A stretch of DNA of 64,000 bases, taken from positions 13,147 through 77,146 of the IMG/VR virus record IMGVR_UViG_3300050645_000186. One strand, given 5' to 3'. Origin of the DNA: a virus (taxonomy: Duplodnaviria > Caudoviricetes). A model generated the notes under the pieces. That model was not told where the DNA came from, searched no databases, and saw only the letters and a list, made by a program, of their open reading frames with translations. Shown here piece after piece: positions 11,296 to 44,126 of the stretch. The position numbers were made by a program, and so were the translations under genes. How positions within the stretch are numbered: the stretch's first letter is position 1; each line of letters begins with the position of its first letter.

Positions 11296-11631
11296 ATGGG
11301 CCTTGGAAAGATGGGTGCATTCATAGACATCGTGGCGGTGACGGCTGCCAAGGATGACGAGGGCTTCGCCACAACGACAGATACGGTGCTCGCAAGCGTC
11401 CGGGCACACAAGGAAACGCGCCAAGGGCGCGCGGTGGGATCGAAGGATGCGGGTGTGTTTACGGCGGCAACGACGCTGTTCCGCTTCCGCGCCATCCCCT
11501 CCCTGAAAATCACAACCGCCCACGCGATACGCTGCGGCGGCGAGAGATACTCCATCGCGAGCGTGGCGGATGTGCGTGGCATGTATGTCGAAGTGCTCGC
11601 GGATATCGTGACCCCCAAAGGAGGCGGATGA
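11296..11631 (+). CDS. Head closure / head-tail adaptor
   Basis: DDEGF...VLASVRA...FRFR; synteny. Confidence 0.8.
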   Translation: MGLGKMGAFIDIVAVTAAKDDEGFATTTDTVLASVRAHKETRQGRAVGSKDAGVFTAATTLFRFRAIPSLKITTAHAIRCGGERYSIASVADVRGMYVEVLADIVTPKGGG

Positions 11632-11632
11632 C

Positions 11633-12064
11633 ATGGCGAAAGCGGAAATCCAGATGCCGGAAGAACTCATGGCCTCTTTGGAGGCGCTGGGCGATAAGAC
11701 GGACGGCATCATACAATCGGCGCTCGAAGCGGGCGCGGAGGTAGTGATTTCAAAAGTGCGCGGCAACCTCGCCTCGGCGATCGGGCGCAATCTCAAGGCG
11801 CGGCGGCGCTCTACGGGCGCACTGCTGGCCGCGTTGGGTGTGTCGCCCGTCAAGATCGACCACAACGGCATCCACAACCTTAAGGTCGGGTTCAGCGAGC
11901 CGCGGCGCGGGGGCGGCGTCAACGCCAAGCTCGCCACCATCCTTGAGTACGGCAAGACGGGCCAGCCCGCAAAGCCGTTTTTGAAGCCCGCGCGTTCGGC
12001 GTCGCACGCGCCCTGCATCGCAGCCATGCAGCAGAAGTTCGAGGAGGAGGTCAACGGCATATGA
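11633..12064 (+). CDS. HK97 gp10-like tail completion protein
   Basis: LEYG...QPAKPFLKPA. Confidence 0.85.
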   Translation: MAKAEIQMPEELMASLEALGDKTDGIIQSALEAGAEVVISKVRGNLASAIGRNLKARRRSTGALLAALGVSPVKIDHNGIHNLKVGFSEPRRGGGVNAKLATILEYGKTGQPAKPFLKPARSASHAPCIAAMQQKFEEEVNGI

Positions 12065-12402
12065 GCCTGTTGAAGGAAGTCAAAGTCGTATTCGACGCGC
12101 TCGGTATCCCGGTGGAAACGGGCACGTTCAGCGACCCTCCACCCGATCGGTACGCGCTTATAACCCCCATGTCGGACGTATACGGGCTGTTCGCGGATAA
12201 CCGGGCGCTGTTTGAAACGCAGGAGGCCCGGCTCTCGCTCTTCGACAAGGGTGCGTACACCTCCTTCAAAAACGCGGTGGTCAAGGCGCTGCTTGCGGCG
12301 GGCCTGACCATAACCGGCCGGATATACCTCGGGCGCGAGGCGGACACCGGCTATCACCACTACGCCATCGACGTGGCAAAAGAATACGCACTGGAGGAAT
12401 AA
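12061..12402 (+). CDS. Tail terminator protein
   Basis: PVETG.F...DTGYHHYAID; synteny. Confidence 0.75.
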   Translation: MSLLKEVKVVFDALGIPVETGTFSDPPPDRYALITPMSDVYGLFADNRALFETQEARLSLFDKGAYTSFKNAVVKALLAAGLTITGRIYLGREADTGYHHYAIDVAKEYALEE

Positions 12403-12403
12403 C

Positions 12404-12991
12404 ATGGCAACGATCGGATTGGACAGGCTGTTCTATTCCGCGATCACGGAAGTGGACGGCATTGAAACATACGGCCCGCCCAAGGTGCTGGCAAAGGCCA
12501 TCAAGGCGGATTTGTCCGTCGAGCTTATCGAAGCGATTTTATATGCGGACGACGGCGCGGCGGAGGTCATAAAGGAATTCAAGAGCGGCAAGCTCAGTCT
12601 CGGCGTGGACGATATCGGCACGCCGGTCGCCGAGGAGCTTACGGGCGCTGTGGCCGATGATAACGGCGTGCTCATATCGGGCAGCGAGGATATCGGCGGG
12701 CCTGTCGCGATCGGCTTCCGCGCGCAGAAGGCCAACGGCAAGTACCGGTATTTCTGGCTGTACCGCGTGATATTCGGCCTGCCCGCCACCAACCTGCAGA
12801 CCAAGGGCGACTCGATATCCTTCCAGACGCCCACGATCGAGGGTACGGTCATGCGCCGCAACAAGCTCGACGCGAGCGGCCGCCACCCGTGGAAGGCCGA
12901 AGTCACAGAGGGCGATCCCAACGTCGTCCCGTCCACCATATCGGAATGGTTCTCCGAGGTGTACGAGCCGATTTTCACTTTGCAGCCATAA
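12404..12991 (+). CDS. Major tail protein (phi13-like)
   Basis: MATIGLD; LYADDG; YRYFWLYRV; FQTPTIEG. Confidence 0.9.
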   Translation: MATIGLDRLFYSAITEVDGIETYGPPKVLAKAIKADLSVELIEAILYADDGAAEVIKEFKSGKLSLGVDDIGTPVAEELTGAVADDNGVLISGSEDIGGPVAIGFRAQKANGKYRYFWLYRVIFGLPATNLQTKGDSISFQTPTIEGTVMRRNKLDASGRHPWKAEVTEGDPNVVPSTISEWFSEVYEPIFTLQP

Positions 12992-13000
12992 GGGGGGCAC

Positions 13001-13387
13001 ATGGACAACGAAAGGACGGCATTCATAGAGATTGGCGGGGACGAGTATGCGCTCGTCCTCACCACGCGCGCGACCAAGGAAATCGCCAAGCGGTACGGCG
13101 GCTTGGAGAACCTCGGCGACAAGCTGCTCAAGGCGGAGGATTTCACGCTCGCCATAGACGAGGTGGTATGGCTTTTGACCCTGCTCGCCAATCAGGGCGT
13201 ACAGGTACACAACCTCCTGCATCCGAAGGACACCCGCGAGCTGCTCACCGAGGAAGCTGTGGAGCTTTTGACCTCGCCTGCCGACTTGGCAAAATACAAA
13301 GGCGCGATCATGGAGGCCATGTATCGCGGCACGGCGCGGCACATTCTGAGCGAGGATGATGGCGGAAAAAACGCGCAGGCCGGGTAA
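13001..13387 (+). CDS. Tail assembly chaperone (gpG-like)
   Basis: Between major tail protein and tape measure; KRYGGLENLG. Confidence 0.85.
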   Translation: MDNERTAFIEIGGDEYALVLTTRATKEIAKRYGGLENLGDKLLKAEDFTLAIDEVVWLLTLLANQGVQVHNLLHPKDTRELLTEEAVELLTSPADLAKYKGAIMEAMYRGTARHILSEDDGGKNAQAG

Positions 13388-13575
13388 GCGACGAGGAGTT
13401 GTTTGCCCGGCTGATTTATTACGGGGTAAGCCAGCTCCACCGCGCAGAGCAGGAAGTGTGGCTCATGCCGCTCGGGCACCTGCTCGATCAATGGGAGGCG
13501 CATAAGCAGTTCCACGGGCTGGCAAAGCCCAAGCGAGAGATGTTTATCGAAGATATCATCCCCTATGGCATTTAG
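13369..13575 (+). CDS. -1 frameshift extension of tail assembly chaperone (gpGT-like)
   Basis: Slippery A AAA AAC at 13366-13372; -1 frame open for 69 codons (VSDEELFARLIYYG...IIPYGI*), homologous to 57099..57305. Confidence 0.8.
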   Translation, partial: KRAGRVSDEELFARLIYYGVSQLHRAEQEVWLMPLGHLLDQWEAHKQFHGLAKPKREMFIEDIIPYGI

Positions 13576-13581
13576 CGATCG

Positions 13582-13608
13582 GGCATTCCATTGCGGGATG
13601 CCTTTTTT
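13582..13608 (+). terminator. Intrinsic terminator-like hairpin before the tape measure gene
   Basis: GGCATTCC-attgc-GGGATGCC-TTTTTT. Confidence 0.5.
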
Positions 13609-13638
13609 GCTGCACTTTTTCAGGAAGGCGGTGACGGC

Positions 13639-16227
13639 ATGGCGGATAATTTTGGCTTGAAGATCGGCGTTGAGGGCGAAAAAGAGTTCAAAAAGGCCCT
13701 GCGCGAGATCAATCAGGAGTTCAAGGTGCTCGGCTCCGAAATGAAGCTGGTCACCTCGCAGTTCGACAAGCAGGACAATTCCGTGCAGGCCGTTACCGCC
13801 CGCAAAAAGGTGCTCACAAAGGAAATCGATGAGCAGAAGGAAAAAATCAGCCTGCTGGAAAAGGCGCTTAAAAATTCATCGGATTCCTTCGGCCAGACGG
13901 ACAGCCGCACCAAGGCATGGGCCGTCCAGCTCAACAACGCCAAGGCCGAGCTTAACGATATGGAGCGCGAGCTGGATAAGAACAACGCCGCGCTCGGGGA
14001 GGCCGAGCAGGGTTTCGCTTCCGCTGGCGAGGGTGTCGAAGAGTTCGGCGGCGCTGTTGAGGAAAGCGCCGACCGGACGGAAAAGGCCGGTGGCAGCTTT
14101 GAAAAGATAGGCGGCGTCCTCAAGGGCATCGGGGTTGCCGTGGGCGCGGCCATCATAGCCATCGGCACGGCGGCGGTCGCCGCCAGCGTGAGCTTGGTAA
14201 AGCTGGGTGACGAATACAATCAGGCGGTCAACCAGATTTCCGCCTCTACCGGCGCGACCGGAGCCGAGCTGGAGGCGCTGGGAGCCGTTGCTCGGAATGT
14301 GTACAAGAAGAACTTCGGCGAAAGCATGGCCGATGTGGCCGAGGGCTTATCGGTCGTCAAGAAAACCACAGGACTTTGGGGTGCTGATCTGGAAAAGGCC
14401 ACGGAGTCCGGGTTTGCTTTGCGGGATACGTTCGGCTTTGAAATGCAGGAATCTGCCCGCGCGGCCGGTGCGCTCATAAAGAACTTCGGCGTGAGCGCCG
14501 AGCAGGCGTACAACATTATTGCGGTGGGCGCGCAGAACGGCGCGGACAAAAACGGCGACCTGCTGGACACCCTGAATGAATACTCCGCGCAGTATTCCGC
14601 GCTGGGCCTGTCCGCCGACCAGTTCATCGCGAGCCTGATCAGCGGTGCGGACGCGGGCGCTTTCTCCATTGATAAAGTAGGCGACGCGGTGAAGGAGTTC
14701 AACATCCGTGCCAAGGATGGCAGCGCCACCACGACGCAGGCGTTTGCGACGCTCGGGATGAACGCGGATGACATGATGCGCCGGTTCGCTTCCGGCGGGG
14801 CGGACGCGCAGGCGGCCTTCTTCGAGGTTGTGAGCGCGCTGAACACCATGGAAGATCCGTTGGCGAAGAACAATGCGGCCGTGGCGCTGTTCGGCACCAT
14901 GTACGAGGATTTGGAAGCCAATGTTCTTCCGGTGCTTTCGAGCATGGCGGACGGCGCACAGCAAAACTACGATGCGCTCTCCCAAATCAATAAAATCAAG
15001 TACAGCGACCTCGACACCGCGATCGAGGGCACAAAGCGTTCCCTGCAGGGTGTGTTTTTGCCCGTGGTCAGCGAGGTATCGGCGGGCATCACCGGCGTAT
15101 TCTCTACGCTCGGCAACGCCATCAACGAAGCGAACGGCGATTTTGAACAGATCGCTGCGGCCATCGGTACAGCGATCGGCGACGTTGCCGACATCATCGT
15201 GGAAAAGATGCCGATGTTTCTTGAGCTGGGTCTTAATATCGTCATGGCCATCGGCGGCGCGATCATCGAAAACCTGCCCATGCTGATCGAGGCGTCGGTG
15301 AATATCATCATGACGCTGCTCACCGCGCTGATCGAAGCGCTTCCCCGGATCACGGAGGCAGCGGTGACGCTTGTGCTCACTTTGGTGCAGGGGATTATAG
15401 CAAATCTGCCCGCACTGGTAGAGGCGGCCATTCAAATGATCGTGACGCTGGCGACGGGCTTGGCCGATTCGCTGCCGGAACTGATCCCCTCCATCGTGGA
15501 GGCTATCATTCTCATTGTACAGGTGCTCATACAGAACATGCCCAAGATACTCGACGCGGCGCTCAAGATCATTCAGGGCTTGGCGCAAGGACTTTTAAAC
15601 GCCCTGCCCAAGCTCGTGGACGCGCTGCCTAAGATCATAACGGCGATCATCGACTTCATCGTGAACAACCTGCCCAAGATCATCGAAATGGGCATATCGC
15701 TCACCGTGCAGCTTGCCGTGGGCCTGATTCAGGCCATTCCCCAGCTTGTCAAAGCAATCCCGCAGATCATTTCGGCGATCATCGACGGCTTGGGCAAGGC
15801 GCTCGGCGCGGTGTGGGAAATCGGTAAAAACATCGTCACGGGCCTGTGGAACGGCATCCAAAGCATGGCCTCGTGGATCAAGAGCAAGGTCAGCGATTTT
15901 GTGGGCGGCATCGTCAGCGGTATCAAGGGTGTGCTCGGCATCCGCTCGCCCTCCACCGTGTTCGCCGGGATAGGCGGCCACATGGCGGAGGGCCTTGGCG
16001 TGGGCTTCACAAAGGCCATGGACAGCATACGCCGGGATATGTACGGGGCAATACCGACAGATTTCGATGTGGATGCGCGTCTCGGCACAAGCGGAAGACC
16101 GAACGGTGCGTCCGGCGGCACCACCATCCACCAGAGCATATCGGTGGTCACGCCCAAGGCGCTCAGTGAGCGGGAGCTTTCCCGCGAGTTCAAGAACCTA
16201 TCACGCAAATTGGCGCTGGAACTGTAA
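13639..16227 (+). CDS. Tape measure protein (862 aa)
   Basis: MADNFGLKIG; central DLLDTLNEYS domain; Leu/Ile-rich 11-residue repeats; HGIRSPS-like C-terminal motif (LGIRSPS). Confidence 0.93.
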   Translation: MADNFGLKIGVEGEKEFKKALREINQEFKVLGSEMKLVTSQFDKQDNSVQAVTARKKVLTKEIDEQKEKISLLEKALKNSSDSFGQTDSRTKAWAVQLNNAKAELNDMERELDKNNAALGEAEQGFASAGEGVEEFGGAVEESADRTEKAGGSFEKIGGVLKGIGVAVGAAIIAIGTAAVAASVSLVKLGDEYNQAVNQISASTGATGAELEALGAVARNVYKKNFGESMADVAEGLSVVKKTTGLWGADLEKATESGFALRDTFGFEMQESARAAGALIKNFGVSAEQAYNIIAVGAQNGADKNGDLLDTLNEYSAQYSALGLSADQFIASLISGADAGAFSIDKVGDAVKEFNIRAKDGSATTTQAFATLGMNADDMMRRFASGGADAQAAFFEVVSALNTMEDPLAKNNAAVALFGTMYEDLEANVLPVLSSMADGAQQNYDALSQINKIKYSDLDTAIEGTKRSLQGVFLPVVSEVSAGITGVFSTLGNAINEANGDFEQIAAAIGTAIGDVADIIVEKMPMFLELGLNIVMAIGGAIIENLPMLIEASVNIIMTLLTALIEALPRITEAAVTLVLTLVQGIIANLPALVEAAIQMIVTLATGLADSLPELIPSIVEAIILIVQVLIQNMPKILDAALKIIQGLAQGLLNALPKLVDALPKIITAIIDFIVNNLPKIIEMGISLTVQLAVGLIQAIPQLVKAIPQIISAIIDGLGKALGAVWEIGKNIVTGLWNGIQSMASWIKSKVSDFVGGIVSGIKGVLGIRSPSTVFAGIGGHMAEGLGVGFTKAMDSIRRDMYGAIPTDFDVDARLGTSGRPNGASGGTTIHQSISVVTPKALSERELSREFKNLSRKLALEL

Positions 16228-22308: not shown

Positions 22309-22338
22309 CTTGCTATGTGTGAAACACAGAGGTAACAT
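22309..22338 (+). promoter_or_regulatory. CTTGCT-N-AGAG motif, copy 3 (upstream of recombinase 1)
   Basis: CTTGCTAT-N10-CAGAG-g-TAACAT; shares AATTAACTTGCTAT with copy 2. Confidence 0.5.
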
Positions 22339-22360
22339 GCCTACTGCAAGGAGGGATCGT

Positions 22361-23695
22361 ATGGCAAGAAATATACGGATAATAGGGCCTTTATCGCCCG
22401 CAGCGCCCAAGAAAAAGCGCGTGGCCGCATATGCGCGGGTATCCAGCGGCAAGGACGCAATGCTCCACTCGCTCTCGGCGCAGGTCAGCTACTACAGCGC
22501 CTATATCCAACGTCAGCCGGGCTGGGAATACGCCGGTGTGTACGCGGATGAGGCGCTCACCGGCACCAAGGATGACCGCCCGGAGTTCCAGCGGCTGCTT
22601 GCCGACTGCCGGGCCGGGCAAATCGATATGGTAGTTACAAAGTCCATATCAAGGCTGGCAAGGAACACGGTAACTATGCTGGAGGCGGTGCGCGAACTCA
22701 GGGCGCTGAACATCGATGTGTTCTTCGAAAAAGAGAATATTCACAGTCTGAGCGGGGATGGTGAGCTGATGCTTACCATCCTCGCTTCTTTTGCGCAGGA
22801 GGAAAGCCGGTCGGTCAGCGAAAACTGCAAATGGCGCATCCGCAGTCGTTTTCGGGACGGCGAGCTGGTGGGCCTGAGTTATATGTACGGCTATCGCATA
22901 TGCAAAGGCGTGATCAAGGTTGATTTAGTCGAAGCGGCGGTCGTGAGGCGGGTTTTCCGGGATTGCATCGAAGGCATCGGCGTGGAGACGATCGCAAAGC
23001 GGCTCAACGAGCTGGGCATATCGCAGCGGCGCGGTGGCGAGTGGTCAGGGGCGCGCGTGCTGCACCTGCTGCACAATGAAAAATATACCGGCAACGCCCT
23101 GTTGCAAAAAAGCTACGTCGCCGACCACCTGACCAAGAAGGAACGCCCCAATAAAGGCGTACTCCCCATGTACTTTGCGGAGGGTACGCATCCCGCCATC
23201 ATCGACCGGGGCACATTCGATCGTGCGCAACGGCGGCTTGAAGCCAACAGGAAAAGCAACAACATTTCCAAAGATGCGCCTGCCAGATACCCCTTTTCCG
23301 GCATCATCCAATGTGATAATTGCGGGCAGAAATTCAAGCGCGTCGTGTGCCATGGCAGGCCCTACTGGCAATGCACGACGTATCTTCGTAACGGCAAGGC
23401 CGCCTGCCACACCAAACAGATACCCGAGCCTATTCTGCTGTCGCTTGCGGCACAGGCGCTTGGGCTTTCCGCTTTTGATGAGGCGGCTTTCAACAGCCAA
23501 ATCCAAGAGATGCGCATACCCGCGCACGATCGGGTGATTTTTGTGTTTCACGACGGCCATACGGCGGAGTGCGTATGGCAGGACAATTCGCGCCGGGATA
23601 GCTGGTGTGAGGAGAAAAAGCAGCAGGCGCGCCAGCGTCAGCTTGAATATATGGAAAAGGAGAACAGCCAATGCAACCAAACGCCGCAAGAGTAA
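22361..23695 (+). CDS. Large serine recombinase 1
   Basis: YARVSS catalytic Ser; VYADE; TKSISR; AQEESRS.SEN; recombinase domain; zinc ribbon CDNCG...C. Confidence 0.93.
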   Translation: MARNIRIIGPLSPAAPKKKRVAAYARVSSGKDAMLHSLSAQVSYYSAYIQRQPGWEYAGVYADEALTGTKDDRPEFQRLLADCRAGQIDMVVTKSISRLARNTVTMLEAVRELRALNIDVFFEKENIHSLSGDGELMLTILASFAQEESRSVSENCKWRIRSRFRDGELVGLSYMYGYRICKGVIKVDLVEAAVVRRVFRDCIEGIGVETIAKRLNELGISQRRGGEWSGARVLHLLHNEKYTGNALLQKSYVADHLTKKERPNKGVLPMYFAEGTHPAIIDRGTFDRAQRRLEANRKSNNISKDAPARYPFSGIIQCDNCGQKFKRVVCHGRPYWQCTTYLRNGKAACHTKQIPEPILLSLAAQALGLSAFDEAAFNSQIQEMRIPAHDRVIFVFHDGHTAECVWQDNSRRDSWCEEKKQQARQRQLEYMEKENSQCNQTPQE

Positions 23696-23888
23696 CCGTA
23701 ATCCCTGCGTATACGCGGCCTTCTAATACAGGGCCTGTGGGCCTTGCCTCAAAAAAGCGCGTGGCGGCATATGCCCGTGTATCCACCGATAGCGAGGAGC
23801 AGCTTACCAGTTATGAGGCGCAGGTAGATTACTACACCCGCTATATCAAGGAAAAGGACGAGTGGTCATTCGTTGAAGTCTATACGGA
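23671..23888 (+). pseudogene. Large serine recombinase 2, 5' fragment cut at VYT(D)
   Basis: RVAAYARVSTDSEEQLTSYEAQVDYY...WSFVEVYT then non-homologous AT-rich sequence where DEG is expected; the ORF-track frame to 24099 is a chimera. Confidence 0.85.
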
Positions 23889-23954
23889 AATAATAGTTCC
23901 CTATATGATACGGCTTCGTTTCCGGGATTTCGTTAAAGAATGTAAAAACCTTTT

Positions 23955-24133
23955 GATTTACAGACTTTCTCACACCGAGGGGTGTGCAAAGGTCCTATTT
24001 TTTTGCCCGCTATTTTCGACAGACTATTTTGAACGTGTGCAACTGAGTGTTCACGATGGTAATTTTGCACACCCTTACAACGATGAAGCCGTCCCGTAAC
24101 GATTTACAGGACAGTTCGTTATGAGGGTGTGCA
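23955..24133. repeat. Three TTAC(A/G)G(G)AC...GGGTGTGCA units; two form a 68-bp imperfect palindrome
   Basis: GGGTGTGCA at 23980-23988 (+), 24066-24074 (-), 24125-24133 (+); palindrome 24066-24133 centred on 24100-24103. Confidence 0.7.
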
Positions 24134-24163
24134 TATTGTGCTCTATAGAATAGAGTTGTTTTG

Positions 24164-24517
24164 CTATTCGCAAAGAGAATAAATTTTCGGCATACCGCCA
24201 GAATCTATCACCTTGCCAATTTCAATCAGCCCAAAAACAATCAACGCTCTAACATAAATGTAAGGAGTATCCGTATCGGGGTATAACACTTTCACATACG
24301 GTGCAAGATCATCAAACGAGCCGACACTGTAATTGCTACCATTGCTGTCGGAGACAGCATATGTGGCAGGGTCAAATTTCCCATAGAAATTTTTAACTGC
24401 ATATGCAAAAGCAAATTTTGCAGCAGATGTTCCGTGGTCAAATTTCCCCGTTGCGACCAGTTTATCAGCCACCTCGTTAGCGGCTTTTGATAAGCGGAAA
24501 TTTGTTATATCGTTCAT
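24164..24517 (-). CDS. 117-aa protein, PbeD/DndE-like by position and N-terminus
   Basis: GGAGG RBS; NFRLSKAANEVADKL...AAKFAFAYAV; last gene after the ATPase. Confidence 0.55.
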   Translation of the reverse strand: MNDITNFRLSKAANEVADKLVATGKFDHGTSAAKFAFAYAVKNFYGKFDPATYAVSDSNGSNYSVGSFDDLAPYVKVLYPDTDTPYIYVRALIVFGLIEIGKVIDSGGMPKIYSLCE

Positions 24518-24532
24518 ATCTGTCACCTCCAG

Positions 24533-26527
24533 TTATTGCAGTTCTATTGCTGTATGGAAAGAACCATACTTTCTCAGGCGATATTCTTTTTTGAGTGTGC
24601 TTCCTAAAACCTGTCTGGCGGTCTGCCCATCAATCTCATCAGTGTACGCCAAAAGAATGATCTGATCGGACATTAATGGCAGTGCCTTTGTTATGTTTTT
24701 CTTATGGGTTGGATCGAGACGTCCAAAAGGAGAATCCATTATAATAGGTCCGCTTAAGGGGGCGTTTTTGTGTAAAGCGCCAATCAACGACAGTGCCACA
24801 ATATGCTCAAACCCGGCAGAACGGAATGGTATTATTTCACCGGAACGATGTTGTATGGAGAGGCCATAGTTGTCATTAATTTTTAACGCTGTATAGTCAG
24901 GATCGCTGCTAATGTTGCAGAAAAGCTCTGTAGCATCACGTTCAACTTCCGCTTTTAGTTTGTCACGATATGCAGCGATGCCGTCGTTAAATAACTGATG
25001 GAGTGCTGCACAGATTTCAACCTTTTTTACTGCAAGATTTAAATCCGCATCAGAAGTACCTGCTTTCCGAACTTTTTCTTCAAGGCTTGCTAAAGCAATG
25101 TCGGCTTCTTTTATTTTATCCTTAGTTGCTTGAATACCTTCCTTTAGATTTTCAATCTTTGAATAGCACTTTGCCAAGTTTTGTGCATTCTCTTTTGCGA
25201 CAGCGGTGAGGTCACTTATATTTCCGTAGCGGCTAATCTCATCTCGCAAATCTTTGAACTGACCTTTTGCGTCATCAATCTGCACTAAGAGATCAGCCAG
25301 CTGATCCTCATAAACCTTGAGAACTTGGGCGTCTGTAGCACTCTGCATACTTTCCAAAGATGCCTGTCGGATTTGAAGAGTTTTCATGCGCCCGATTTCT
25401 TCGGTGGACAGTCCGCCAAATTCTCCTGGCTCTTCTTCAAGTCGCTTTTTAAGTGCAATTACGTGAGCTTCATCTACATCCTGGTTACAGCATTCACAAT
25501 GATGCGTTTCTACGATACGTTGAATATATGTCATAAGTCGAGCAACAGACTCATGCGTATTGTGCTTTTGCTGGAGAGTATATAGTTCAGACTTAACCTG
25601 AGATAGAATTTCAGAGGTTTTCTTGCCAATCACATATCTCCAGACATCTTTTGTCGCAACAACAATTGACTGTAAAAGGCCATCACGTGTAGCTTCTTTT
25701 GCAGCAATATCGCTCTCTAAATGCTCCATGTTCTGGATTAATGCTCTGAGATGCTCGTTCTGTTTTCCTTCGTCCTCAAGTTTTGCCCTGAGATTTTGCG
25801 CCTCCTCATATGCTGCTTGAAGCCGCACCAGTTCTTTTGTTTGCTCATCCTTCTTTGCCGTTTCCGATTCAATCTGTGCGGCATACTTTTCTGTCTGCTT
25901 ATTTGCCTGAGCTGCTTTTGTCTGTTCCTTGCGGTATTCGTCAAGGACAAAGGCAGTATCATTAGCGGCGCTTGTCAAAATGGGGACTCCTAAAATTGAT
26001 TCAATAGATTTCTTGATTTTTTCGCCGGCAGAAGTTTCATCTTTCACGAGTTCCTCGTATTCCTGAAGCAATTCACCATCGAATAGGAAAAATCGAGAAA
26101 CATCCTCTGGCATTATTAATGCCAGTTCATGTTCTTTATTTGGAGCAAAATGCCCATCAACCTTAAGAAAAACATCCTGAACATAGTCATCGTTCTTGGA
26201 AGGAACTGTTACACCAGAACGAACACTATATTGACGAGTAAGTTCATATTTTTTTCCATCGTGGAGCATTTTCAATACAACCTTAAAATCGTATTTACCC
26301 GCTTTCATTCCTTCTCGGTTCACCAATTTTAGAATATCTTCTACCGTCTCATGGCGGTATTGGAATCTGCCAAACAAGGCATAACGGAAGAGGTTCAGAA
26401 GCGTGGTTTTCCCATGTCCATTGTCTCCCCAAATAAGGGTAACACCATCCCCATCACCGAAGTCAATTGTCTGCTCACCTTCATAAGGGCCAAAATTATT
26501 GATGGTTATACTCGTAAACTTCAACAT
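24533..26527 (-). CDS. Rad50/SbcC/DndD-like coiled-coil ABC ATPase (PbeC-like)
   Basis: Walker A GDNGHGKT, FFLFDGE, coiled coils with central CECC zinc hook, signature SAG, Walker B IMDSPFGRLD. Confidence 0.85.
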   Translation of the reverse strand: MLKFTSITINNFGPYEGEQTIDFGDGDGVTLIWGDNGHGKTTLLNLFRYALFGRFQYRHETVEDILKLVNREGMKAGKYDFKVVLKMLHDGKKYELTRQYSVRSGVTVPSKNDDYVQDVFLKVDGHFAPNKEHELALIMPEDVSRFFLFDGELLQEYEELVKDETSAGEKIKKSIESILGVPILTSAANDTAFVLDEYRKEQTKAAQANKQTEKYAAQIESETAKKDEQTKELVRLQAAYEEAQNLRAKLEDEGKQNEHLRALIQNMEHLESDIAAKEATRDGLLQSIVVATKDVWRYVIGKKTSEILSQVKSELYTLQQKHNTHESVARLMTYIQRIVETHHCECCNQDVDEAHVIALKKRLEEEPGEFGGLSTEEIGRMKTLQIRQASLESMQSATDAQVLKVYEDQLADLLVQIDDAKGQFKDLRDEISRYGNISDLTAVAKENAQNLAKCYSKIENLKEGIQATKDKIKEADIALASLEEKVRKAGTSDADLNLAVKKVEICAALHQLFNDGIAAYRDKLKAEVERDATELFCNISSDPDYTALKINDNYGLSIQHRSGEIIPFRSAGFEHIVALSLIGALHKNAPLSGPIIMDSPFGRLDPTHKKNITKALPLMSDQIILLAYTDEIDGQTARQVLGSTLKKEYRLRKYGSFHTAIELQ

Positions 26528-26545
26528 AACAAACAACCCTCCTTA

Positions 26546-26737
26546 TTAAATGGTTACCGTCTTCAGAAAATCATCTATGACTTTCTGCGTATCATGTCTT
26601 GCCTTTGTCCTATCATCCTGAGACGAAAATTCCGCATTTACGATATCTTGAATCAATGATGCAGGTATTTTAGGCTGCTGCTTGGCTCTGATTTTTTCCA
26701 ATACGGAAATCAGTTCATTGATTTCGATGTTAGTCAT
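26546..26737 (-). CDS. 63-aa protein between helicase and ATPase (PbeB-like position)
   Basis: GAGGAGG RBS inside the helicase 3' end; start overlaps helicase stop; predicted helical. Confidence 0.65.
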   Translation of the reverse strand: MTNIEINELISVLEKIRAKQQPKIPASLIQDIVNAEFSSQDDRTKARHDTQKVIDDFLKTVTI

Positions 26738-28862
26738 TGTCATCATCCTCCTCAATTCCGGTGTTTTGTAAACTGTTGTAGTCGATCTGGTAATCAACGG
26801 CTATATTTTTCAAATCGGTAACACAGGCAGGGTTTTCTGCGCCTAAACCAAACTGAATCGCTCTTGATAATTCACCGATAATAATCGACATAGACTTTGG
26901 CGTTTCTTCAGATTCGACCACGGGAACCGTAATCGCATCATAAAGATGTGCGAAGAGCTTACCTGGTGAATTTCTTAGAATCCTACCTCTGCGCTGAATG
27001 AATTCTCTTGGATTCTGTGAAGACGCAAGAATCAAAGCGTGTGTGGTAGAAGGAATATCAATACCTTCATCCAAGCACTTAATCGAAACCAAGACGCCGC
27101 CGTTCTTAGAAAAGTATCGGAGCGTCTCGTCTCGATCACCTTCCATATCTGCATAGTATTCAAATGCATCAAAACCAGCGTCAATCGCACCGTTCAATAC
27201 ACTCTTTAACTGTGTGATATTGTCGCAATAGATAATCCAACTCTGGCCTACCACATATTCTCTAAGCAAGAGATTGATGGCCAAGGGAACTTTACCAGAT
27301 GCATTCTTGACAATACGCGCTCTGTTAATCAACAATTGCTTCAAGCGTGTGTTGGAGGTAATACTCGTATCTGAATTTCCATTAGCTTTCATACGAGCCA
27401 TAAGCTGACTTATCTGTTTTGTAATATCGTTCCATTCTTCCTGCTCATTTTGTGTGAGGGTAATGGTGAGTGGGTTATAAAAATACTTTGTTAAAACGCC
27501 GCTTTTTATTGCGTCATCCAATGTATAGGGTGGTGGTACGAGACCGCCAAAATAATCAAAGAGCGCAGACGTTCCTTCGGGATCTCCATATCTGCGTGGC
27601 GTGGCAGATAAGCCCAACCTTGCACCTGCATCTATATTTAAGGCGTTACGTCTCCGTGGGCTTCCCAATCTATGTACTTCGTCAGCCACGACAAACAGAT
27701 GATTACCATGCGATACATTTTTTACAAAATCATCTGAGCAGGCTGTATCCATAGTTGCAAGAATAATGCGATGAGTTGAACCTCCATCACTTGTCCAAGA
27801 TGCCAAAGTTCCGGGCTTTTTCCACTCGTTATTGTTATCCCCGCAAAGAAGATAGTATATTTTATCTTCGAGCAAGGTTTCCCTCAATTCTCGATCCCAT
27901 TGTTTTAATAGGTCTCTTGATGGGACTAAAATCAGTACGACTTCATTTCTCTTAAAAGCATCATGGATTGCACACATGGCAGTGAAAGTTTTTCCGCTGC
28001 CTGTAGCATGTTCAAAAATGCCTCGGCGATTATTCTTTACCCATGCTTCAAGGGCATTTACTTGATGCGGACGGGGTGTGCGGCTGCCAACATGATTACT
28101 TGGTTTCCACTTTTTTGCCTTGTTTTCTTCTACATGGATTTCATCCAGTAATTCGTGCCATTTTACTCCCTCCGCTTTAGTTCGTAATATTTCTTTAGAG
28201 GCACTCGGGAATTGATACACAATAATTCCTGAAACGGATTCTGACCATAGCTTTTCAAAAAATACTGATGCGTCATCAACTCGTTCGGCATCGCGGCTAT
28301 CGAGCCAATCCGGAAATACATCAATAGACTCCATGTTTCCATCGGAAGATAGTCCTCTGTACGTTTCATTCATTGAACCACGGAAGCCCACTTTATTACC
28401 ATCGGAATCCGTGAAAATACCGACTTTGTCGTGAAACAGTCTCCTTGCATTTGGTGATTCTTTGCCAGTTGGAACAGCGATTTTTACATCAATAATGCCT
28501 TTTGAAATCATATATGCAAGTAGCTTTGCTGGAGCAGATAAAAAAGGATCATCAAATAAGGTCTGCACTTCTTTTGCAAGCGACTCCGCGAGCAATTCAT
28601 CATTTTTCGCAGAGTAGCCATTAGCTAACGCAGTGGCATCTTCATCAGATACATACGGTGAACATATCAAGCGCATCTTACCATTGTTATCGATAAATTC
28701 CCGTAAAGCATCCCAGGCAATAATGTAGATTGTGCTTCCAAAATACCCGGAGATTCTATCGTAACGGCTTGAGTGCCTCATGCATGGAAGATAAAACATA
28801 TCAGCTATGTCATGCTCGGCCTTATTATAAGAAGTAAGATATGTTTGTTCCTTAAGACTCAT
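26730..28862 (-). CDS. PLD-family nuclease + SF2 (DEAH) helicase fusion (PbeA-like)
   Basis: HDKVGIFTD...GSMNET (HxK...GSxN); ATGSGKT; ADEVH; LSAT; LDEGIDIP; QRRGRILR. Confidence 0.88.
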   Translation of the reverse strand: MSLKEQTYLTSYNKAEHDIADMFYLPCMRHSSRYDRISGYFGSTIYIIAWDALREFIDNNGKMRLICSPYVSDEDATALANGYSAKNDELLAESLAKEVQTLFDDPFLSAPAKLLAYMISKGIIDVKIAVPTGKESPNARRLFHDKVGIFTDSDGNKVGFRGSMNETYRGLSSDGNMESIDVFPDWLDSRDAERVDDASVFFEKLWSESVSGIIVYQFPSASKEILRTKAEGVKWHELLDEIHVEENKAKKWKPSNHVGSRTPRPHQVNALEAWVKNNRRGIFEHATGSGKTFTAMCAIHDAFKRNEVVLILVPSRDLLKQWDRELRETLLEDKIYYLLCGDNNNEWKKPGTLASWTSDGGSTHRIILATMDTACSDDFVKNVSHGNHLFVVADEVHRLGSPRRRNALNIDAGARLGLSATPRRYGDPEGTSALFDYFGGLVPPPYTLDDAIKSGVLTKYFYNPLTITLTQNEQEEWNDITKQISQLMARMKANGNSDTSITSNTRLKQLLINRARIVKNASGKVPLAINLLLREYVVGQSWIIYCDNITQLKSVLNGAIDAGFDAFEYYADMEGDRDETLRYFSKNGGVLVSIKCLDEGIDIPSTTHALILASSQNPREFIQRRGRILRNSPGKLFAHLYDAITVPVVESEETPKSMSIIIGELSRAIQFGLGAENPACVTDLKNIAVDYQIDYNSLQNTGIEEDDDND

Positions 28863-29385
28863 ATGTACCTCCAAGTAGTTCTTCGTGCATGATATCCATA
28901 CGACGAATTATGGCATCGTACAAAAACTGAGGGCGAGCACATACAATACGCTCATTATTTTTTCTCGTTGTTTCAGATACCTTTGTGCAAAGAGCTTCAA
29001 CAATCACATCAGCCTTAACTTGCATATTGCAACTATATGCAAAATCAAGATGTTTTTCAGCATCCCAAAAAGCAAAAACAATATCTTCGCCGTCCCGTAC
29101 TAATGCACCAATAATAGGCATGCGCCCATCAGAATAGTCAAGATGTCCACGTTCTCCATGCTTTTGACCAGGAAGGATTATTTGAATCTTATATTCGCCT
29201 AAAGCACGACCGCCAGGAGGATTTGTGCAGTTCCATAAGTAAACACGCAGACGTAAGCTTCTTGGACATAAATCCACAAGAAGAGGAAATGATGTCGTGT
29301 CACTATGCCAAGTGACATGATCATCGAGTCCCTCAATGAAAATAGTATTCAATGCTTTTTTACTAAGTCTCTTTTTCTTTGCCAT
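28852..29385 (-). CDS. Uncharacterised 177-aa methylase-associated protein
   Basis: AGGAGG RBS; coupled to both neighbours; RVYLWN...EYKIQI...FAFWDA...S.NMQV...R.NNE resembles, from memory only, the methylase-associated X1 domain. Confidence 0.6.
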   Translation of the reverse strand: MAKKKRLSKKALNTIFIEGLDDHVTWHSDTTSFPLLVDLCPRSLRLRVYLWNCTNPPGGRALGEYKIQIILPGQKHGERGHLDYSDGRMPIIGALVRDGEDIVFAFWDAEKHLDFAYSCNMQVKADVIVEALCTKVSETTRKNNERIVCARPQFLYDAIIRRMDIMHEELLGGTYES

Positions 29386-30232
29386 TATCATGTCCTCCTG
29401 CGATAGAGCGAAGAAGAGAAGCCGCATGTTCTACATATTCTTCTACAACATCAAACCCAACAAAGCGCCGCCCGAGAGACAAAGCTGCATATCCTGTGGT
29501 ACCACTTCCCATCCAAGGATCAACCACTAAGTCGTTTTCTGCTGTTGTAGCTTTTATATATTTTTGTGGCAGATACAACGGCTGCGTGGCTGGATGGTCA
29601 TCAATTCGAGCCGATACCCCTCCGCTTATAATATTCTTTGGTAATGCGCCCAATGGGTTTGGGGCTATTCGTTTATTTTTGCGAACGTATGTGTTGCCGT
29701 TTGAACGGGGCTTGTATTCGTAGGTTTCGTATGTTTGAACACTATGGGATTCATAAGGCCTTCGTATTGCGTCAATATTTATTGTCCATTTAGAGGATTT
29801 TGAAAACCATAGATTCTGTTCATAAGCATCTTGGCAGGCTACCCGAAGTCCCGTGGGTACAGGATTCTCTTTTACCCAAATCTCGATATCAACACAATGC
29901 AATCCCCACGTTTCTTCCATTTCTATTGCGAGTTTTTCTATTACCAATGAACGTTTGGACGAACATTTGGATGTTGATTTCTCCCTGTTCGCTTTAACAT
30001 TTATCACAATAAAGCCATCATCGCGTAGTTTTAAACAAGCTGAATCCAAAAATGGTGACATTTTTCTTATATATTCAGACGATCGCCATACTCCATATTC
30101 ACGTTCTGCATTGGGATATGGAGGTGAACCATAAATGAGTTTTATGGATTTATCTGGAAGCAGAAGCATTCCTTTTGCGCCATCCATTCGTCGGACTGCG
30201 TAGTTGCTCTTATTTATCTCCTGTATTATCAT
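29363..30232 (-). CDS. Beta-class DNA methyltransferase B (SPPY; likely N4-cytosine)
   Basis: GSPPY; HPATQP; DPWMGSGTTG; FVGFD. Confidence 0.9.
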   Translation of the reverse strand: MIIQEINKSNYAVRRMDGAKGMLLLPDKSIKLIYGSPPYPNAEREYGVWRSSEYIRKMSPFLDSACLKLRDDGFIVINVKANREKSTSKCSSKRSLVIEKLAIEMEETWGLHCVDIEIWVKENPVPTGLRVACQDAYEQNLWFSKSSKWTINIDAIRRPYESHSVQTYETYEYKPRSNGNTYVRKNKRIAPNPLGALPKNIISGGVSARIDDHPATQPLYLPQKYIKATTAENDLVVDPWMGSGTTGYAALSLGRRFVGFDVVEEYVEHAASLLRSIAGGHDNGKEKET

Positions 30233-31136
30233 CGGCAACCTCTTCTTGTAAATCCTTTTCATATTGCAATCTCAGAGCGGCAAGACGGCAATAATCAGAA
30301 TTAGCATCAATGCCAATCCATATGCGGTTAAGTCGTTGTGCCACAGCAGCAGTGGTGCCAGAGCCTGAAAATGGATCGAGTACAACATCTCCTGCAGAAC
30401 TTCCAGCAAGAATAAAAAATTCTGCCAGTTTTTCGGGGAAACGTGCAGGGTGGCCAATTCCCTCTTCTTTACATAACTTCATAAAATAATCATTACTGCT
30501 TGTGTTTGCAATTTCAATTACTGTTCCAGGGTCTGAACCACCGTTATCGGTCCACACCTTCTCACAATCGAAATTATGTGTGCTGGGACGTGTATTGTAG
30601 TTTCGATCTCCCTTTCCTTTGCCCTGAAGATATTTTTTCATATCTTTACTGTACGGCTTTCTGATTGGATCCATATTAAATTCCCATGTGTCACCCTTTG
30701 CCAACCAAAAGCAATATTCGTGTGATTTTTTAGTGCGACCATAACCTCCCCTAGAATATACATTTGGAGGAGTCGCAGGATTATACCATATATAGTCGCG
30801 TACAAGATGAAACCCAATTTCTTTACATAATTTCAATAAAAGCTCAAATACATATAGGTGCTGAAAGTTATCTACAACTTTATCGCTGATATTAAGAACG
30901 AAACTGCCATCGTCCTTAAGGATCCGATGCATTTCCCTTGCTTTTGGAATAAACCAATCAACATATTCATCAGGTGGAATCGTGCCATCTACATCGCCAT
31001 AATCACGTTTATCTGCATAGGGAGGAGATGTTAGTATAAGATCAATACTCGAATCTGGTATAGTTTGTAAAACAGTTTCACAGTCACCACATATAAATTT
31101 ATCACGAAACGTGTTTAGCGTTTTTTTCTTTTTCAT
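30210..31136 (-). CDS. Beta-class DNA methyltransferase A (SPPY; likely N4-cytosine)
   Basis: GDC; LTSPPY; HPARFP; DPFSGSGTT; WIGID. Confidence 0.92.
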   Translation of the reverse strand: MKKKKTLNTFRDKFICGDCETVLQTIPDSSIDLILTSPPYADKRDYGDVDGTIPPDEYVDWFIPKAREMHRILKDDGSFVLNISDKVVDNFQHLYVFELLLKLCKEIGFHLVRDYIWYNPATPPNVYSRGGYGRTKKSHEYCFWLAKGDTWEFNMDPIRKPYSKDMKKYLQGKGKGDRNYNTRPSTHNFDCEKVWTDNGGSDPGTVIEIANTSSNDYFMKLCKEEGIGHPARFPEKLAEFFILAGSSAGDVVLDPFSGSGTTAAVAQRLNRIWIGIDANSDYCRLAALRLQYEKDLQEEVADDNTGDK

Positions 31137-31138
31137 TG

Positions 31139-31381
31139 TTACACCTTTTCATTTTCGTTATTAAGTTGCTCTTTGTCATCCAATGAAATTTCCATTATAT
31201 CCGAAATATCACACTTAAGCGCATCGCATATTTTCAAAAGCACATCGGTCGTTAGATTTTCATTTTTTGATAGCTTTGCCATAGAAGCAGTACTAATACC
31301 TGTCGCTTCTCGCAAGTCTTTTCTTTTCATATCTTTATCAATTAAAAGTTTCCAAAGCTTTTTATAACTGACAGTAGACAT
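31139..31381 (-). CDS. Xre/Cro-type HTH regulator heading the operon (controller-like)
   Basis: SYKKLWKLLIDKDM...ISTASMAKLSKNE...LLKICDALKCDISDIM. Confidence 0.88.
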   Translation of the reverse strand: MSTVSYKKLWKLLIDKDMKRKDLREATGISTASMAKLSKNENLTTDVLLKICDALKCDISDIMEISLDDKEQLNNENEKV

Positions 31382-31426: not shown

Positions 31427-31445
31427 CGCAAAATAATATTTTGCG
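31427..31445. promoter_or_regulatory. Palindromic operator of the defence operon
   Basis: CGCAAAATA-A-TATTTTGCG, just downstream of the minus-strand -10. Confidence 0.65.
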
Positions 31446-31455: not shown

Positions 31456-31484
31456 ATTATACGGATTTTTATCGAATAAGTCAA
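31456..31484 (-). promoter_or_regulatory. Sigma70 promoter of the defence operon
   Basis: Minus strand TTGACT-N17-TATAAT. Confidence 0.75.
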
Positions 31485-31539: not shown

Positions 31540-31568
31540 TTGACATTGACCCAAAAAAGATGTACACT
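31540..31568 (+). promoter_or_regulatory. Sigma70 promoter of the HTH/ImmA pair
   Basis: TTGACA-N17-TACACT. Confidence 0.7.
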
Positions 31569-31570
31569 AT

Positions 31571-31590
31571 TGTTAGCTGTTTAGCTAACA
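31571..31590. promoter_or_regulatory. Palindromic operator, copy 1
   Basis: TGTTAGCT-gttt-AGCTAACA at the predicted transcription start. Confidence 0.75.
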
Positions 31591-31622: not shown

Positions 31623-31997
31623 ATGGAAATTGGAAATAAATCCTTTGGTGAATTACTTACTTTTTTCAGAGAAAAGAAAGATGTAACATTAAGGGAACTG
31701 GCCAGAGGGATTGGCGTTTCCGCACCATTCTTAAGTGATGTTGAAAAAGGAAGGCGCGCTGCCTTGACAGCTGAGCGCATAGAAAAGGTTGTTGTTGTTC
31801 TGCATTTAGATGAAGAGGAAGCAACAGCCCTGTATAATGCAGCCGGGAAACAGAAAAACTCAATTCCTCCAGATTTACCGGAATATATTATGGAACATGA
31901 GTACGTCAGCGCAGCTCTTCGCACAGCCCGCGATCTTGATGCAAGCGAGGAAGAATGGCAGCGATTTGTGGATGATCTGAGGAGGCGAAAAGGATAA
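31623..31997 (+). CDS. Xre-family HTH repressor (ImmR/CI-like)
   Basis: FGELL..FRE...TLRELARGIGVSAPFLSDVEKGRR. Confidence 0.9.
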   Translation: MEIGNKSFGELLTFFREKKDVTLRELARGIGVSAPFLSDVEKGRRAALTAERIEKVVVVLHLDEEEATALYNAAGKQKNSIPPDLPEYIMEHEYVSAALRTARDLDASEEEWQRFVDDLRRRKG

Positions 31998-32000
31998 GGC

Positions 32001-32741
32001 ATGTTTAAACCAGAATTGAGGTATTCTAATACCGGAATTCCTATAATATCAAACGCAGAGATTGATACAATAGGAGAACGAATGATAGTAGATTTTGATA
32101 GTTCTTCTTTATTTAATCCGCACGCAATTGATATTGAAAGATTTGTAGACAAATACCTAAAAATGCCGATTGAATTTATGTACTTATCTCACTGTGGTGT
32201 TTATCTTGGCACGACAGTATTTCAGACGACAAATCGTCTTCCCATTTACATTCCAGAAGAAAATCGAGCAGATTATGCTCATGTAGAGGCTGGCACAATT
32301 GTAATTGATGGCAGTCTTGATAGTGAAAATCAAGAGCATCGTCTGCGTTTCACACTCGGTCATGAAGGCGGACATGGCATTTTTCACCCATCCTATTTTC
32401 TTAATACAATAGGTTCCAGTGAGAGAGATAACACTGGAATATATGTGAGATGTCGTTCGGATTTTAAGGCATCTTGGCAAAATCTCAATGGCTTTCATAA
32501 TATGTCTGATGCCGAACGAGTTGAACAACAGGCTAATCGCTTTTCTGCTGCTGTTTTAATGCCTAAAAGTGCTGTTAAAATTCTACTTGCAGGAAAGCCG
32601 TATGACGGGACGACGGAGTGGATTATTTCTTCGATGACCCAGATTAGCGATACTTTTAACGTTTCTAAAGAAGCAGCTTTTTATCGTCTAAAGGGACTTG
32701 AAATTATAGATGATTATAAAAAAATACCAATTGTAATGTAA
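32001..32741 (+). CDS. ImmA/IrrE-family metallopeptidase
   Basis: RLRFTLGHEGGH (HExxH); EQQANRFSAAVLMP. Confidence 0.88.
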   Translation: MFKPELRYSNTGIPIISNAEIDTIGERMIVDFDSSSLFNPHAIDIERFVDKYLKMPIEFMYLSHCGVYLGTTVFQTTNRLPIYIPEENRADYAHVEAGTIVIDGSLDSENQEHRLRFTLGHEGGHGIFHPSYFLNTIGSSERDNTGIYVRCRSDFKASWQNLNGFHNMSDAERVEQQANRFSAAVLMPKSAVKILLAGKPYDGTTEWIISSMTQISDTFNVSKEAAFYRLKGLEIIDDYKKIPIVM

Positions 32742-44125: not shown

Positions 44126-44126
44126 C

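Follow-up and report, generated by a model that had tools for sequence, protein, structure and literature searches.

A prophage-borne cassette of Clostridia that joins two predicted N4-cytosine methylases and MTaX1 to a PbeABCD block

Layout of the locus

The DNA analysed here (the window) is a stretch of 64,000 nucleotides taken from a 77-kb IMG/VR provirus record of a Caudoviricetes virus (IMGVR_UViG_3300050645_000186, positions 13,147 to 77,146 of that record); all coordinates are those of the window. It carries a compact cassette of eight open reading frames (ORFs) on the minus strand, at 24164-31381, exactly where a first reading of the letters alone, made without database searches and called here the sequence-only reading, had placed a Pbe-like defence module coupled to DNA methylation. 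In order, the genes encode a small helix-turn-helix (HTH) regulator, two methylases (MT1 and MT2), the methylase-associated protein MTaX1, and the four proteins PbeA, PbeB, PbeC and PbeD (Table 1). The cassette is almost certainly a member of the known methylase/MTaX1-linked CxC-ABC-ATPase/DndE (“PbeABCD”) class. The best explanation of the locus as a whole, and a fairly probable one, is a mobile methylase/MTaX1-linked Pbe defence cassette with a working model that resembles restriction-modification (R-M).

The genes overlap or are closely spaced, the successive junctions being +2, -53, -23, -11, -8, +18 and +15 nt when ribosome-binding sites and comparison with homologs guide the choice of starts. 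A GGAGG-type ribosome-binding site stands before each of the eight refined starts (the higher coordinate of each gene in Table 1). A single strong promoter match was found on the minus strand, ~75 nt 5' of the first ATG; together with the ORFs and their junctions, it confirms the earlier description of eight closely spaced minus-strand genes under one promoter. In nine aligned copies (the window and eight other loci) TTGAC is invariant and the -10 region conserved, and the promoter is conserved also in two loci (L005 and L008) whose genomic context is unrelated. A perfect palindrome, read from the sequence, follows just 3' of the -10, and several relatives have a GCAAA...TTTGC inverted repeat at the equivalent position. 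It is a candidate operator, to which the HTH_26 protein encoded by the first gene may bind.

The cassette has a G+C fraction of 0.41, compared with 0.55-0.60 in the flanks; the values range over 0.38-0.43 in the cassette and 0.52-0.62 in the flanking prophage DNA. When compared with three diverged copies, in which synonymous sites are near saturation, the ratio of nonsynonymous to synonymous substitution (dN/dS) is 0.01-0.18 for every one of the eight genes, including those for the 63- and 117-residue proteins. Because the ratio is this low throughout, all eight ORFs are genuine genes under purifying selection. For the HTH_26 leader the value is 0.05, and this protein shares 71% identity with the HTH that leads a cassette combining Ssp-type genes with Pbe genes (L021, see below). 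In L005 and L008, DNA homology to the window is confined to the interval from 24144/24165 to 31382, with unrelated flanks; the homology stops at these points, and the ends of the cassette are therefore fixed.

Table 1. Features of the cassette and of the surrounding prophage DNA, in window coordinates
Feature	Position	Strand	Description and basis
Cassette promoter	31456..31484	-	TTGACT, 17 nt spacer, TATAAT; 11/12 sigma-70 consensus positions
Perfect palindrome, 19 bp	31427..31445	-	CGCAAAATA-T-TATTTTGCG; candidate operator
HTH_26 (Cro/C1-type) regulator, 80 aa	31139..31381	-	First gene; Pfam HTH_26 8e-21
MT1, 308 aa	30210..31136	-	Predicted beta-class N4-cytosine DNA methylase; Pfam N6_N4_Mtase 1e-50
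MT2, 299 aa	29363..30262	-	Predicted second beta-class methylase; Pfam N6_N4_Mtase 1e-38
MTaX1, 177 aa	28852..29385	-	Candidate site reader/adapter; Pfam MTaX1 PF20296, 81.2 bits (cut-off 25), 1e-22
PbeA, 710 aa	26730..28862	-	N-terminal HKD (phospholipase D, PLD) nuclease and superfamily 2 (SF2) helicase; PADLOC PbeA 5e-216
PbeB / Sp-DndD, 63 aa	26546..26737	-	Small protein; position between PbeA and PbeC
PbeC, 664 aa	24533..26527	-	Coiled-coil ABC ATPase with Cys hook (CxC clade, sister to DndD); PADLOC PbeC 1e-222
PbeD, 117 aa	24164..24517	-	Modelled as DndE-like with two ribbon-helix-helix repeats; AlphaFold2 model, Foldseek
Prophage 1	terminase 6215, tape measure 13591, endolysin 20910, serine integrase 22310-23695		PHROGs
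Truncated recombinase ORF, 142 aa	23671-24099		Between the prophages, then cassette; first ~70 residues match integrase family, rest diverges
80-bp element	24061-24139		Recurs in L001 and L007
Palindrome 5' of ImmR	31540-31590		TGTTAGCT-AAAC-AGCTAACA; likely ImmR operator
Promoter-like motif 5' of ImmR	31540-31568	+	TTGACA, 17 nt, TACACT
Prophage 2	divergent ImmR/ImmA 31623-32741	+	Then helicase, PolA, primase, two ParB-fused methylases, terminase, portal, capsid, tape measure; PHROGs
Two adjacent ParB-N-domain-fused methylases	44106-46690	+	phrog_498, 2.7e-99 and 1.7e-187

The Pbe effector block

The last four genes are a PbeABCD effector block in the published order, because they comprise PbeA and PbeC by their PADLOC matches, a PbeD with a DndE-like modelled fold, and a small protein with an ortholog in the Sp-DndD family. 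The sequence-only reading had recognized a Pbe-like block in this order and had suggested comparing it with DndD, TIGR04095 and the PADLOC models; in that comparison the PbeA and PbeC models win and DndD is far behind. Its domain calls for the whole operon (HTH, two methylases with SPPY motifs, PLD and SF2 helicase, hook ABC ATPase, small proteins) were likewise upheld by Pfam, PADLOC and the sequence motifs.

PbeA contains the Pfam domains PLDc_2, ResIII and Helicase_C, and scores 343 bits against TIGR04095, under the cut-off of 600. Its HKD motif (H144, K146, GSMN) and its SF2 motifs I, II, III and VI (ATGSGKT, DEVH, SAT and QRRGRILR) are intact, and both sets are invariant in 18 homologs. 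PbeC has the Walker A motif GDNGHGKT, and the Cys pair at the apex of its coiled coil (HCECC) recurs, in the form CxC or CxxC, in six PbeC proteins that have diverged from it. The best PADLOC DndD model reaches only 4e-54 on this protein, and the DndD family TIGR03185 gives 176 bits, under its cut-off of 245.85.

The small protein between them has no significant family match of its own, scoring 14.2 bits against Pfam Sp-DndD (cut-off 27.2), while an ortholog in another copy of the cassette (L019, 45% identical) passes with 29.4 bits, and it is through this ortholog that the protein can be assigned to Sp-DndD. It is the fastest-evolving gene product of the cassette, yet its dN/dS is only 0.09-0.18. 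PbeD gave no match in Pfam, PADLOC or NCBIfam, and its profile found only noise among PDB sequences (LptD, E ~1). Its AlphaFold2 model (predicted local distance difference test, pLDDT, 88.5) consists of a beta-alpha-alpha unit that occurs twice, and the best 12 PDB matches shown by Foldseek, within ranks 1-17, are all DndE (4lrv, 5wtu, 7x4e; template modelling scores 0.51-0.70, probability 0.89-1.0). The last gene product thus models as a DndE fold, as expected of PbeD.

Two methylases

The two methylases are ~28% identical to each other. The closest solved relative of MT1 is the N4-cytosine enzyme M.PvuII (1.2e-51, full length), and M.PvuII can be aligned over the whole of MT2 too (1.3e-16), the match of MT2 to CcrM being limited to the S-adenosylmethionine-binding end. 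SPPY precedes GSGTT in both proteins (residues 37 and 258 in MT1, 46 and 252 in MT2). A motif IV of SPPY is reportedly the hallmark of N4-cytosine methylases and DPPY that of N6-adenine methylases, a distinction said to go back to Malone, Blumenthal and Cheng in 1995. On these grounds both enzymes are assigned to the PvuII-like N4-cytosine class.

MTaX1

The product of the fourth gene was left as an unnamed 177-residue “X” by the sequence-only reading. The gene itself stands, and the protein is no longer nameless, since it matches the Pfam family MTaX1, “methylase-associated X1”, with 81 bits. Its gene overlaps MT2 by 23 nt and PbeA by 11 nt. The domain is rare, occurring in 3 of 400 Clostridia genomes; an exhaustive HMMER search returned 246 clusters.

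The AlphaFold2 model of MTaX1 (pLDDT 94) has no Foldseek match in the PDB at E 0.001 or better. In a wide search with VIA-align, 10 of the 12 best matches are PD-(D/E)xK nucleases, with I-Ssp6803I (Z 7.5), Hjc (7.2) and RecU (6.7) followed by NhoI, Eco15I and DpnI (4.6-5.3). The conserved residues are Y49, R60, E64, K66, D/E108, N120, Q122, E145 and R162; E64-x-K66 is kept, and Y49 occupies the position expected of a catalytic Asp in the preceding strand. The model of MTaX1 thus resembles a restriction endonuclease in its fold, but the active site is non-canonical.

Its fusions connect it with both sides of the cassette. In one relative (L022, 520-7367) MT2 and MTaX1 are merged into a single protein of 442 residues, with MTaX1 at the C-terminus of MT2. 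In another genome (L016, G048:C1:1008000-1025000, 5651-11889) MTaX1 forms the N-terminal head of a McrB-like AAA_5 protein and replaces the DNA-binding domain found there in McrB-like subunits; this protein adjoins an RE_LlaJI nuclease and two C5 methylases, which is the composition of a LlaJI-type R-M system. Directly 5' of a PbeA gene, P0085 is a protein of 695 residues with alpha-CTD/HhH and sigma-r4 HTH modules and MTaX1 at its end. Across the family, fusion partners include AAA_5, a NOV_C nuclease domain, HTH and methylase domains. A further locus (L017, G032:C28, 6394-9750) encodes a C5 methylase, a 390-residue protein made up of MTaX1 and an unknown C-terminal part of 220 residues, and a second C5 methylase. 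Four other MTaX1 homologs (P0065, P0135, P0059 and P0043) come from contigs too short to reveal their neighbours.

MTaX1 is proposed as a site reader or adapter because it is found fused to a methylase and is constantly adjacent to PbeA. The fusions and this adjacency suit such a role, and a nuclease would also be compatible with them.

Relatives, linkage and spread

All eight genes occur in the same order in eight genome loci, from metagenome-assembled genomes (MAGs) of Oscillospiraceae, Ruminococcus and other Clostridia of gut and rumen, and in one IMG/VR contig. Identity to these nine relatives is ~63-98% across genes and loci (75-94% for PbeA). The same eight genes are found at 45-78% identity in the complete genome of Mogibacterium pumilum (L018, CP016199.1, 512337-532466) and in an element resembling an integrative and conjugative element (ICE), with a relaxase and three integrases (L019). 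In M. pumilum, PbeC (11327-13352 of L018) is called as two genes, for 385 and 280 residues, and this copy may be inactive. An SfsA-family gene lies 3' of PbeD in both L018 and L019 and is not present in the window.

A scan of metagenome contigs with an alignment of 9 MTaX1 sequences, which biases the survey to the MTaX1 subfamily of the query, gave 80 loci (37-87% identity). Of these, 54 extend far enough for the gene directly after MTaX1 to be identified, and in 53 it is PbeA; PbeA occurs together with PbeC in 40/40, and PbeD is present in 38/40. Upstream of MTaX1, two methylases of the N4/N6 type were detected in 43 of 57 loci, one in 12 and none in 2, such that at least one methylase is directly upstream in 55/57. 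One-methylase cassettes are common among the more distant MTaX1 relatives.

Near-identical cassette DNA was found in DNA runs from 11 studies, which sampled anaerobic digesters, sludge and bioreactors, and contigs from RNA libraries of two studies cover the cassette. The RNA-library cover is no more than a hint of transcription, since DNA can be present in such libraries. RNA runs X15 and X16 have almost no contig on the lytic genes (33.3-40 kb) or on the 20-23.3 kb part of prophage 1, both of which are covered by DNA run X3; being an absence of contig cover, this pattern carries no weight as evidence. The left flank of the cassette-covering RNA contigs departs from the window at 23887.

Overall, the cassette is one unit, self-contained and mobile, because its genes overlap or are closely spaced behind one promoter, its ends are shared with L005 and L008, PbeA adjoins MTaX1 in nearly all loci, MT2 and MTaX1 are fused in L022, and the HTH_26 leader is common to different cassettes.

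Sulfur genes and the modification slot

The earlier remark that DndC does not occur nearby agrees with a search using TIGR03183, which found none in the 77-kb record. Nor was DndC found in five MAGs that carry cassettes with PbeA 88-94% identical to that of the window, each of which gave 1-4 first-look candidates, none passing.

Sulfur-modification genes do occur with more distant relatives of the block. Two gut phage contigs, MT835493.1 (L020) and MT835506.1 (L021; locus 1381-16000), encode a PbeA 31-33% identical to that of the window, a small ORF, PbeC and a protein of 163-185 residues in the position of PbeD. A Pfam scan of L021 gave the order HTH_26, PAPS-reductase/Fer4 (SspD-like), DUF4007 (SspB), a 1196-residue protein without family match, cysteine desulfurase and PbeA, with a GmrSD (SspE-like) gene after the Pbe genes. 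The scan covered L021 only; the upstream ORFs of L020 match those of L021 in size.

Judged by domain content and order, the four-gene module of L021 is a predicted Ssp-type phosphorothioate module (SspD-B-C-A), occupying the slot that MT1, MT2 and MTaX1 fill in the window. One chassis thus takes either phosphorothioate genes or methylases with MTaX1 in its modification slot. This exchange is the clearest comparative support for the idea of a swapped mark, put forward by the sequence-only reading, in which methylation itself would be the self mark. The combination of an Ssp-type module, a Pbe block and an SspE-like gene was not seen among the systems described.

Prophage context

By PHROGs assignment the record holds two tandem, related prophages of siphovirus type, 65-73% identical in DNA across their replication genes, which bears out the earlier view of a prophage-borne module. 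No cassette is present within 2 kb before the helicase of prophage 1, and since this related prophage lacks it there, the cassette is accessory cargo. A temperate phage of Clostridia bears it as lysogenic-conversion cargo, with the left attachment end on one side and the ImmR/ImmA switch on the other.

On the PbeD side, the end of the cassette is faced in related prophages by a gene for a serine recombinase with ~39-47% identity to Int1. A full integrase and a truncated ORF at 22310-24139 fit the nested or tandem integration suggested by the sequence-only reading. The 80-bp element of Table 1 recurs in L001 and L007 at differing distances from PbeD.

The opposite side is bordered by ImmR (HTH) and ImmA (M78 peptidase). 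The TGTTAGCT/AGCTAACA palindrome 5' of ImmR overlaps a plus-strand promoter-like sequence (Table 1), and the sequence-only reading reported a second copy after ImmA, at ~32785; these palindromes are likely to be the ImmR operators of the phage switch. The divergent ImmR/ImmA pair adjoins the cassette in 17 of the 38 metagenome loci with enough upstream DNA (among L026-L075), and also in M. pumilum (L018). Its identity falls in step with that of the cassette (63-90% for ImmR). Phage genes of the window type lie beyond ImmR/ImmA in only 8 of the 17 loci, the remaining ones bordering a PolA/DUF2800 phage module of another kind, a serine recombinase paired with a SocA antitoxin, FRG/DUF2971 genes or a Y-family polymerase. 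ImmR and ImmA may form a lysogeny switch that is exchanged along with adjacent cargo, or else a CapH/CapP-like regulator through which the cassette responds to damage.

The late-early region of prophage 2 encodes two adjacent methylases fused to ParB-N domains. They are separate from those of the cassette and are probably phage anti-restriction enzymes.

Proposed mode of action and alternatives

A mode of action resembling R-M is moderately probable for the cassette. The HTH_26 protein would repress the single promoter by way of the palindrome over the transcript start. MT1 and MT2, from their enzyme class, would mark the DNA of host and prophage with N4-methylcytosine, each enzyme probably serving a different strand of an asymmetric site. 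MTaX1, as site reader or adapter, would tie the methylases to PbeA and report unmethylated sites, as its fusions and the gene order suggest. PbeA would then attack or stall unmethylated incoming DNA, in a manner comparable to the Res subunit of Type III systems, while PbeC, as a Zn-hook ABC ATPase, and PbeD, as a DNA binder with two ribbon-helix-helix units, would scan or clamp DNA, as proposed for DndD and DndE. The small protein may restrain the machine, as suggested for its counterparts (Rakesh 2024, PMC10853773).

Several points weigh against this model. The archaeal Dnd-Pbe system stops viruses from replicating, and no DNA cleavage is visible (Xiong 2019, PMC6459918), so that “restriction” may be the wrong word. 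A literature search, made without most subscription journals, found no experiment on any methylase-linked Pbe cassette. With E-x-K kept in a nuclease-like modelled fold, MTaX1 might itself cut DNA, although its structural matches all have Z of at most 7.5, and a Z under 8 can reflect a common arrangement. The one-methylase variants (12 of 57 loci) mean that the asymmetric-site idea is not general. Finally, the five genomes in which no DndC was found are MAGs of unknown completeness, and the host of the window itself was outside that search.

Among the alternatives, the least unlikely, if still an improbable one, is offered by Rakesh 2024 (PMC10853773): an abortive-infection or suicide device, in which the small protein holds the Pbe machine off until infection releases damage to the cell's own DNA or a replication block, methylation having a regulatory or anti-restriction role instead of being the self mark. 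The small protein lies between PbeA and PbeC and evolves fast, with the highest dN/dS of the operon, and the same paper sees in it either a negative regulator or a protein that senses viral triggers; archaeal Pbe leaves viral DNA undegraded (PMC6459918), and prophages often bear exclusion systems. This does not sit well with the near-universal linkage to a methylase directly upstream of MTaX1, with the replacement of the methylases in sister cassettes by a module that would write phosphorothioate, which is the signature of a self mark, or with the MT2::MTaX1 fusion, which ties the mark-writer to the restriction side. A very unlikely reading divides the locus into two independent neighbours, a solitary PbeABCD and a Type II/IIS-like R-M system with the HTH as controller, two methylases and MTaX1 as endonuclease. 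A short HTH heading an R-M operon does resemble a controller protein, the modelled PD-(D/E)xK-type fold has a conserved E-x-K, E145 and R162, and MTaX1 proteins accompany two C5 methylases without Pbe genes in L016 and L017. However, the strand before E-x-K has Y49 and no conserved Asp, and in L016 MTaX1 is the head of the McrB-like NTPase, the nuclease there being a separate LlaJI protein. MTaX1 also overlaps the genes on both sides, PbeA follows it in all but one of the judged loci of the query's subfamily, and the same type of HTH_26 leader heads an Ssp and Pbe cassette that has no methylase.

Dependence of the block on phosphorothioate DNA made by dnd or ssp genes at another place in the host chromosome, with the methylases as unrelated phage anti-restriction enzymes, is so improbable that it can almost be set aside. 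It would accord with the sole characterised Pbe system, which is phosphorothioate-dependent (PMC6459918), with the ParB-fused methylases of the usual phage kind in the same prophage, and with a DndC search that did not include the window's own host genome. Against it, no DndC-type PAPS reductase was found in the five MAGs with closely similar cassettes, PbeA and PbeC score under the cut-offs of TIGR04095 and TIGR03185, and a trait that few hosts possess cannot be what a mobile cassette depends on when its copies reside in prophages, in ICE-like elements and in the chromosomes of different genera.

The R-M-like model allows a wider, tentative and rather doubtful extension. In this view a restriction-endonuclease fold, now disarmed, would serve MTaX1 as a sequence-specific reader that is sensitive to methylation and passes unmethylated and often asymmetric sites to diverse NTP-driven machines. 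The cassette would then represent a distinct, modular class of ATP-dependent R-M, in which the mark module (N4-methylcytosine or Ssp phosphorothioate) is interchangeable behind a common regulator, and which might stall replication rather than cut. If so, the reader would serve an HKD-SF2 translocase with a Rad50-like Zn-hook ATPase and a double ribbon-helix-helix clamp in this cassette, and McrB/LlaJI motors elsewhere.

The cassette is well suited to a first experimental test, being 7.4 kb with its own promoter and regulator, intact motifs and defined ends, and covered by RNA-library contigs. It is common in Clostridia of digesters and gut, on prophages and ICE-like elements. It matters for whether a Rad50-like/DndE scanning complex can use a methyl mark on the base instead of sulfur in the backbone, for the role of MTaX1, and for how a large prophage-borne system shapes the traffic of phages and plasmids in anaerobic communities.

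Comparison with known systems

The methylase-linked form of Pbe is already catalogued computationally and has been predicted since 2019-2020. Methylases were found within 10 kb of 155 of 320 solitary pbeAC pairs, and a pairing with methylation was proposed (Xiong 2019, PMC6459918). CxC-ABC/DndE systems with an HKD-SF2 protein, a small protein, permuted N4-cytosine methylases and MTaX1 are described by Rakesh 2024 (PMC10853773), where PbeA to PbeD are annotated as found here, methylcytosine is proposed to replace phosphorothioate, and Krishnan et al. 2020 (NAR 48:10045) is cited for the methylase-linked systems. The sequence-only reading was thus right that pbe loci next to methylases had been noted computationally, and it overstated the novelty of the locus, as the same pairing is in the first of these papers and the parts list in the second.

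The methylase/MTaX1-linked CxC systems (Rakesh 2024, PMC10853773, Fig. 4A iv) have the same parts list as the cassette, and there is little difference in kind. The cassette adds the HTH_26 leader, a defined promoter with palindrome and the prophage site, and its two methylases are both of the N4 type, not C5 or a mixture; the published systems have been described by computation only. With DndCDEA-PbeABCD of Haloterrigena jeotgali and Natrinema A29 (PMC6459918) it has PbeA, PbeB, PbeC, PbeD and their order in common. It differs in lacking dndCDEA, in having two methylases and MTaX1 as mark-writers, in being bacterial and phage-borne, and in the scores of PbeA and PbeC, which are under the NCBIfam cut-offs of the dnd-linked equivalogs. 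The Ssp-Pbe cassette of L021 resembles the window in its HTH_26 leader (71%), a modification module, PbeA, a small ORF, PbeC and a PbeD-position protein, and differs in its Ssp-type genes, the lack of MTaX1 and the GmrSD gene that follows.

Type III R-M is alike in that an SF2 “ResIII” translocase-nuclease is encoded after a methylase, with an asymmetric-site logic likely, and a PbeA 70% identical to that of the window is labelled by NCBI as “type III restriction endonuclease subunit R”. Type III Res, however, has a C-terminal PD-(D/E)xK nuclease and a single Mod, whereas PbeA has an N-terminal HKD and the cassette two PvuII-like methylases. With its HKD nuclease and the additional MTaX1, ABC ATPase and DndE subunits, the cassette does not belong to Type III. 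LlaJI-type R-M (two methylases, McrB-like NTPase R1, nuclease R2) is organised on the same logic, with a reader alongside two methylases and a nuclease driven by NTP, but combines AAA_5 and LlaJI with C5 methylases, as opposed to SF2-HKD with an ABC ATPase.

DISARM, MADS and Hma likewise combine a methylase with genes for helicases, ATPases and nucleases. No PADLOC model for DrmA or DrmB matched the cassette, DISARM being represented only by a weak DrmD hit (5.5e-5) on helicase motifs. MADS, whose core MAD3-MAD4 is an OLD-type ATPase-nuclease, had no PADLOC match in the cassette, nor did any PADLOC model of Hma (HmaA, HmaB and HmaC; helicase, m5C methylase and ATPase). Relative to all of these descriptions, what is new here is the evidence on the MTaX1 fold and its fusions, the exchange of Ssp genes for methylases behind a common HTH, the ends of the cassette, its promoter and palindrome, and the survey counts.

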